From Escherichia coli (lineage in GTDB: Bacteria > Pseudomonadota > Gammaproteobacteria > Enterobacterales > Enterobacteriaceae), in assembly GCF_003334315.1 (NCBI RefSeq), contig NZ_QOWR01000105.1: a DNA stretch of 3,201 nt; one strand, written 5' to 3'. Under the pieces are notes generated by a model. It saw nothing but the letters and a program-made list of their open reading frames with translations. It was not told the DNA's origin and did not search any database. Positions 2,466 to 2,771 of this stretch are shown one piece after another. The translations under genes were made by a program, and so were the position numbers. Within the stretch, counting starts at the first letter, position 1. Every line of letters begins with the position of its first letter.

Positions 2466-2713
2466 ACATATCCTTTTTCTGTAGGGTGGAATCTAACGCC
2501 TTTTTATAGCGAGGTTGTCCCGGCTCTTACCAATACACTTTTCTCACGCATTCAATAGCGATTCGATATCGATGGATTTATATCTTTTCTCTATTAATCC
2601 ACGGTAAAAACTGTATTGGCGATATTAATTCCTTTGCATTAACAATATGTCGTTTTTAGCAAACCACTTTATTAAGCAATCTACTAATAACGATCGGCAT
2701 AGGGAATTATGCT
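2466..2713 (-). promoter_or_regulatory. xapA upstream control region (expected XapR-dependent promoter; exact sites not assignable from sequence alone)
   Basis: AT-rich 248-bp region between the xapA start and the divergent gene start. On the minus strand there is a candidate -10 TATAAA (plus 2503-2508) about 37 nt upstream of the ATG, with a weak TTGGTA -35-like hexamer 19 nt further upstream, and a 10-bp perfect palindrome TCGATATCGA at 2563-2572. That xapAB is activated by the LysR-type regulator XapR with xanthosine is established knowledge; the site assignments here are inference. Confidence 0.45.
2503..2508 (-). promoter_or_regulatory. Candidate -10 hexamer (TATAAA) of the xapA promoter
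   Basis: On the minus strand, TATAAA lies about 37 nt upstream of the xapA ATG with a TTGGTA -35-like element at 19-bp spacing. Sequence-based guess only. Confidence 0.25.
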
Positions 2714-2748
2714 ATGAAAAAACATCTTTTAACTCTGACACTTTCCTC
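2714..2748 (+). pseudogene. 5-prime stub of a divergent gene (signal-peptide-like start MKKHLLTLTLS), truncated by the IS1 insertion; by position probably the yfeN homologue
   Basis: ATG at 2714 preceded by AGGGA (2701-2705) at good Shine-Dalgarno spacing. Lys-Lys followed by a hydrophobic run is typical of a secretion signal. The reading frame runs straight into the IS1 end at 2749 and stops 6 codons later inside IS1. The yfeN assignment is from recalled K-12 gene order only. Confidence 0.4.
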
Positions 2749-2771
2749 GGTAATGACTCCAACTTATTGAT
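2749..2771 (-). repeat. IS1 right terminal inverted repeat (IRR), inner end of the right IS1 copy
   Basis: Plus strand GGTAATGACTCCAACTTATTGAT starting at 2749, directly abutting the truncated divergent gene. Confidence 0.85.

Follow-up and report, generated by a model that had tools for sequence, protein, structure and literature searches.

Does an IS1 element next to the xanthosine phosphorylase gene xapA merely interrupt the neighbouring gene, or does it also change the expression of xapA? The question is raised by a 3,201-nt stretch of Escherichia coli DNA (hereafter the window), in which the end of an IS1 copy lies upstream of xapA, inside the start of a gene transcribed in the opposite direction. 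We consider it very likely that IS1, or the end of an IS1-bounded rearrangement, cuts yfeN at this point, and that this is one of three lesions that have left xapA stranded together with an unaltered control region.

The interrupted gene and the inserted element

The earlier note had described a gene start on the plus strand, consisting of an AGGGA Shine-Dalgarno sequence, an ATG at 2714 and the N-terminus MKKHLLTLTLS, and had proposed on the basis of position that it belongs to yfeN. All of these coordinates proved to be correct. The segment 2466-2748 gave 4074 matches in E. coli records, 2423 of them with an identity of at least 99%, and covers the annotated start of yfeN; in E. coli E2865 (locus L002) the annotated yfeN CDS begins exactly at the base that matches window position 2714. 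The disrupted gene is thus yfeN, and its start keeps the conserved synteny with xapA. Homology of this ATG to a gene start in related genomes, one of the points on which the earlier note had made its reading depend, was found in the form of the annotated yfeN start. A chance ORF at 2714 was ruled out: thousands of genomes have the start of yfeN annotated at this ATG, and the start region proved to be conserved out to Salmonella.

The window retains the ribosome binding site of yfeN (AGGGA, 2701-2705) and the coding positions 2714-2748, which correspond to codons 1-11 and two nucleotides of codon 12. On comparison of the two sequences, intact yfeN continues from CTTTCCTC into TATATTAGCG, whereas in the window the same CTTTCCTC is followed by GGTAATGACTCC; with a longer flank, ACACTTTCCTC is followed by TATATTAGCG in the intact gene and by GGTAATGACTCC in the window. 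Since the two diverge after ACACTTTCCTC, the breakpoint lies exactly between 2748 and 2749, past the second base of codon 12, as expected from the proposal that yfeN is cut after codon 11 by an IS1 beginning at 2749. IS1, or the end of a rearrangement, would then interrupt yfeN between the second and the third base of this codon. The start codon of xapA occupies 2465-2463 on the minus strand and the first base of IS1 is 2749, so that the gap between them (2466-2748) amounts to 283 nt, the same distance as had been given before.

Translation from the yfeN start leads into the element and yields a chimeric ORF of 18 codons (2714-2770, plus strand). It reads MKKHLLTLTLS, then S, encoded by a codon 12 that straddles the junction (TC before it, G after it), then VMTPTY, and ends at a TGA stop at 2768-2770. 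Six sense codons lie wholly inside IS1, and the earlier statement that the frame ends six codons into the element therefore holds.

The element itself (2749-3201, minus strand) was identified as the IRR-proximal part of IS1 with its IRR tip at 2749, again in agreement with the first reading. It is identical at 453 out of 453 positions to the IRR-proximal part of complete 768-bp IS1 copies in E. coli loci, and this identity rests on 453 nt, the window ending inside the element. The tip has the sequence GGTAATGACTCCAACTTATTGATAG, which is the terminal inverted repeat of IS1. The ORF at 2764-3141 (minus strand) is the insB part and encodes the C-terminal portion of the IS1 transposase; it matched the NCBIfam profile NF033558 (transpos_IS1) with 126 bits (E = 1.5e-36) at a score cutoff of 100 bits. 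Transcription of this IS1 copy is co-directional with that of xapA, and its transposase genes face xapA.

Intact YfeN consists of 254 aa, belongs to the Pfam family Channel_Tsx (PF03502) and matches the profile NF008574. Its N-terminus is MKKHLLTLTLSSILAIPVVSHA followed by EF, a sequence whose arrangement suggests the n-, h- and c-regions of a signal peptide; the part kept at 2714-2748 would then represent the N-terminal half of that signal peptide. The 254-codon frame is not intact in the window, where codons 1-11 and 2 nt in front of IS1 constitute a pseudogene fragment. Since no more than a peptide of 18 residues can be made from the upstream part, yfeN has to be regarded as a pseudogene, and a remnant that breaks off in the hydrophobic core of its signal peptide should be unable to form a channel. 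The proposed course of events is thus that a cut in the hydrophobic core would leave only the 18-residue peptide to be encoded and would turn the gene into a pseudogene. To judge from the sequence, YfeN function has probably been lost. Inactivation of yfeN holds whether the IS1 is a simple insertion or not.

YfeN has been described merely as a putative outer-membrane protein of the Tsx family (PMC7797564). It should be added that YfeN is not a known phage receptor: yfeN::kan was without a phage phenotype in the BASEL screen.

Simple insertion or endpoint of a rearrangement

The DNA at the insertion site has a GC content of 30-37%, which fits the preference of IS1 for AT-rich targets. The target duplication generated by IS1 is usually 9 bp and sometimes 8 bp long. 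From the usual 9-bp duplication the nonanucleotide ACTTTCCTC at 2740-2748 is predicted to be one copy of the target site. If the insertion was a simple one, the far side of the element would show the IRL tip, then a second copy of ACTTTCCTC, and then the remainder of yfeN (TATATTAGCGATACC; TATATTAGCG).

The junction 2748/2749 was absent from 5426 complete E. coli genomes, from plasmids, from GTDB representative genomes and from JGI metagenomes. Likewise, the predicted far-side pattern (IRL tip, a duplication of 9-13 nt, TATATTAGCG) was absent from the metagenomes and genomes. An exact-protein look-up gave no record for the junction-spanning ORF of 60 aa, and another gave none for the ORF predicted from a simple insertion, in which MASSP is fused to YfeN residues 10-254. 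When the XapB fragments and the 222-aa YfeN remainder were used, many E. coli loci were returned, none with the structure of the window. The exact junction being absent from all collections searched, the junction in the window represents an independent event. Annotated yfeN pseudogenes disrupted by IS1 (in AH01, OkiPb01684 and HL15) share with the window the element, the gene, the 5' region of about 110 nt and the AT-rich target, but differ from it in that its exact IRR-proximal junction was not present in any of the complete E. coli genomes.

We put the chance that IS1 entered at 2749 by simple insertion with a target duplication at roughly one half. The other reading, that 2749 is the endpoint of an IS1-mediated deletion or rearrangement with downstream yfeN or unrelated DNA beyond it and with no 9-bp duplication, is only slightly less probable. 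What can be said for it comes partly from other E. coli lesions of the same gene. In OY754409 a stretch of 419 bp is replaced by IS1, and in OkiPb01684 and L007 the replacement comprises 253 bp of yfeN. The lesion of AH01 runs on into catA1 and TnAs3, and that of L028 into a class 1 integron and a Tn3-like element. In L026, yfeN is joined not to xapA but to genes of sugar-acid metabolism encoding a glycerate kinase, a protein of the 2-hydroxyacid dehydrogenase family and a HpcH/HpaI aldolase. Besides these replacements and joins to other DNA, there are evidently several copies of IS1 in the genome, with two of them falling in these 3.2 kb, and the MASSP-YfeN fusion that a simple insertion would generate is not on record. 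Against a rearrangement endpoint speak the strains HL15 and SF10, in which an independent IS1 in the opposite orientation, only 1 bp away, is flanked by a clean 9-bp duplication (CTTTCCTCT). So does the segment between the two IS1 copies of the window, in which, by comparison with E2865, the genes keep their fully native order and orientation. Among six comparable yfeN lesions of E. coli for which both flanks could be seen, only one is a simple insertion, a proportion that weighs less for an endpoint because these comparators were gathered with biased queries. By the simple-insertion reading, each of the two IS1 copies would have come by simple transposition.

Where both flanks of a yfeN lesion could be seen, it is mostly associated with a deletion or with foreign DNA (catA1/TnAs3, class 1 integron). 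Independent IS1 lesions within the first ~110 nt of yfeN were seen in L003 (4071-4847), L030, L032, L026, L028, L031, L004, L033 and L010. The junctions are located at codon 12 (two events), at about codon 20 (both orientations), at about codon 22, at codons 32 and 36, and also 20 bp upstream of the ATG. All distinct yfeN IS1 junctions lie in DNA of 30-37% GC, and two pairs of lesions occupy the same or an adjacent site of yfeN in opposite orientations. The possibility that yfeN is an IS1 hotspot was considered and rejected: there are several independent sites, yet the first 160 nt of the gene are split in just nine of the 4072 complete genomes that carry the locus. IS1 hits in yfeN are thus recurrent but rare.

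The gene carries other kinds of lesion as well. Some E. coli (L025 and L027, about 90 nt before position 4997) have lost one A from the A6 run in yfeN codons 2-3, and L031 has a nonsense change of codon 23 from GAA to TAA. From these two alterations it follows that yfeN also decays by point mutation.

The control region and the expression of xapA

The divergent spacer between xapA and yfeN is complete and unaltered in the window (248 bp, 2466-2713, 36% GC); many E. coli genomes, among them that of ER1709, a K-12 derivative, match it with 100% identity. Conserved blocks were defined as those shared with the divergent strain E. coli ATCC 11775 and with a Salmonella plasmid-borne xap-yfeN cluster. 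By alignment with these two sequences, the conserved elements proximal to xapA occupy 2497-2619 (minus strand). Sequence and conservation point to a -10-like TATAAA for xapA at 2508-2503 (minus strand). An inverted-repeat search revealed two arms of 13 nt, CCAATACAGTTTT at 2619-2607 and AAAAGTGTATTGG at 2542-2530, which are 64 nt apart and are conserved in both ATCC 11775 and the Salmonella plasmid copy. For xapA, two XapR sites have been described, one partly overlapping the -35 element and the other located further upstream, and strong induction needs both of them (PMC7205307). The arms CCAATACAGTTTT and AAAAGTGTATTGG probably correspond to these XapR sites; the distal one might in addition act on the divergent promoter of yfeN. 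A HusR site known from the literature, TAGCGAGGTTGTCCCG (PMC12844172), was located in the window at 2507-2522. Further conserved blocks (2638-2713) adjoin the start of yfeN and probably represent its promoter.

The earlier note had suggested that an IS1 end close to the control region of xapA may alter its expression. This suggestion did not find support: the spacer is unchanged, and the conserved blocks on the xapA side are at least 130 bp away from the element. The most distal of them ends at 2619, 130 bp from IS1, and the putative xapA -10 element is separated from IS1 by about 240 bp. With its first base 283 nt from the ATG, IS1 is neither within nor directly beside the promoter region of xapA. 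A consensus scan of both strands over 2440-2800 revealed no sigma-70-like promoter site created at the junction. These features suggest that the regulation of xapA is essentially unchanged at the promoter.

Insertions of IS1 and IS5 are known to activate the cryptic bgl operon. By analogy, IS1 might alter xapA expression either by lifting a bgl-like silencing exerted through the AT-rich spacer or by read-through of transposase transcripts. The orientation of the element, whose transposase genes face xapA, makes read-through conceivable, and at 36% GC the spacer is indeed AT-rich. We nevertheless regard an altered expression as improbable, given that the 248 bp of the spacer are unchanged, that the two XapR sites described, like the conserved elements, are promoter-proximal and at least 130 bp from IS1, and that no promoter-like site was found at the junction by the consensus scan. 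IS1 is, moreover, strongly polar in both orientations. Finally, the xapB frameshift described below would abolish the positive feedback on which switch-like induction depends, because the xap switch relies on feedback through the XapB transporter (PMC7205307).

What recalls bgl is the position of an IS1 in AT-rich regulatory DNA upstream of a catabolic gene. The window differs in that its IS1 is situated within the divergent gene, at least 130 bp past the last conserved element on the xapA side, and in that xapA is dependent on an activator (XapR) and is not known to be silenced. In view of the polarity of IS1 and the loss of XapB feedback, the bgl analogy for xapA stays speculative and finds no counterpart in the sequence. 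A long-range effect of IS1 on xapA, via read-through or via a change in the binding of nucleoid proteins to the AT-rich spacer, is possible. Still less probable than an altered expression is that the retained xapA has become XapR-independent (through IS1 read-through or altered nucleoid-protein silencing), or that the IS1-bracketed remnant can be excised or translocated; we would be very surprised by either.

A different situation was observed in OY754409.1 (L010, 9047-9108). Here only 61 bp of upstream sequence remain between the xapA ATG and the lesion formed by IS1 and the 419-bp deletion, and the distal conserved elements are gone. An IS1 effect on the expression of xapA is far more plausible in this record than in the window.

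The xanthosine remnant between two IS1 copies

The segment 205-2748 is native chromosomal DNA, 99.7% identical to E2865. It contains the first 21 codons of xapX, xapB, xapA, the xapA-yfeN spacer and the first 35 nt of yfeN. An Rfam search of the window gave no family match.

At its left end the segment is bounded by another IS1 copy, of which the window holds the IRL-proximal 204 nt (1-204, minus strand) with the IRL tip at 204; the orientation is the same as that of the right copy. The reverse complement of this part corresponds to positions 1-204 of complete IS1 with a single mismatch, at window position 197 (IRL tip GGTGATGaTGCC). Position 197 is position 8 of the IRL tip, which reads GGTGATGATGCC in place of GGTGATGCTGCC. 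Alignment with E2865 identified the adjoining 205-267 (minus strand) as codons 1-21 of xapX (DUF1427/XapX), cut by the left IS1 after codon 21: window position 205 aligns to position 1736 of L002, within an annotated DUF1427 CDS of 52 aa (1640-1798). The intact XapX protein (52 aa) matches TIGR03510.

The next gene, xapB (320-1572, minus strand), is a pseudogene according to both the E2865 alignment and the ORF list. It lacks 4 bp (plus-strand ATAG) between 676 and 677, and the deletion breaks the frame into two ORFs, one of 313 aa and one of 109 aa. The allele is widely distributed in E. coli, where 1102 collection blocks list it, and in strain OkiPb01684, which has the same xapB allele, the RefSeq annotation calls the gene 'frameshifted'. 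By contrast with these damaged genes, xapA (1632-2465, minus strand), encoding xanthosine phosphorylase, is intact and shows no differences from E2865; its product matches TIGR01699 (XAPA) with 542 bits.

The lesions in xapX, xapB and yfeN thus leave an intact xapA on a remnant of 2544 bp between direct IS1 copies (1-204 and 2749-3201). In the scheme that we propose, IS1 in xapX, the 4-bp frameshift in xapB and the cut in yfeN would together have made xapA the only intact gene of the remnant. The direct orientation of the two IS1 copies predicts that recombination between them can remove the remnant, a deletion that could take out all 2544 bp.

Two direct IS1 copies flanking a passenger segment also have the layout of a composite transposon, and it might be supposed that the unit IS1-xapX'-xapB'-xapA-'yfeN-IS1 has moved as such to a non-native site. 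Tn9 is a composite transposon of this kind, with the structure IS1-cat-IS1 and its IS1 copies in direct repeat. The likeness lies in two direct IS1 copies around a short segment with an intact gene; the difference is that the DNA bracketed here is native chromosome in native order, with no sign of mobility. Apart from the IS1 copies flanking the 2544 bp, a transposon of xapA could appeal to the few plasmids that carry xap-yfeN-like clusters, at 77-91% identity, but the plasmids and other records searched contained no IS1-bounded unit of this type, and independent insertions in situ are a simpler explanation. A composite transposon therefore seems scarcely credible to us. The IS1-bracketed remnant is more likely to be a substrate for deletion by IS1-IS1 recombination than a mobile unit.

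Two of the plasmid matches may be mentioned here. The Salmonella Typhimurium plasmid P02 (L035, NZ_OU015330.1, labelled as a plasmid) carries a complete xapR-xapX-xapB-xapA-yfeN-like cluster with 77% identity, and a 50-kb E. coli plasmid (NZ_CP098226.1) matches xapX'-xapB-xapA-yfeN' at 91% identity.

The change in yfeN is an ordinary pseudogenisation by IS1 in a decaying locus for xanthosine utilisation, and is already known in kind. It raises no new question on the regulation of xapA and has little importance beyond annotation, in which yfeN and xapX should be recorded as pseudogenes disrupted by IS1, xapB as a frameshifted pseudogene, and xapA as intact but stranded. The locus is a textbook snapshot of the IS-driven reductive decay of an accessory catabolic locus.
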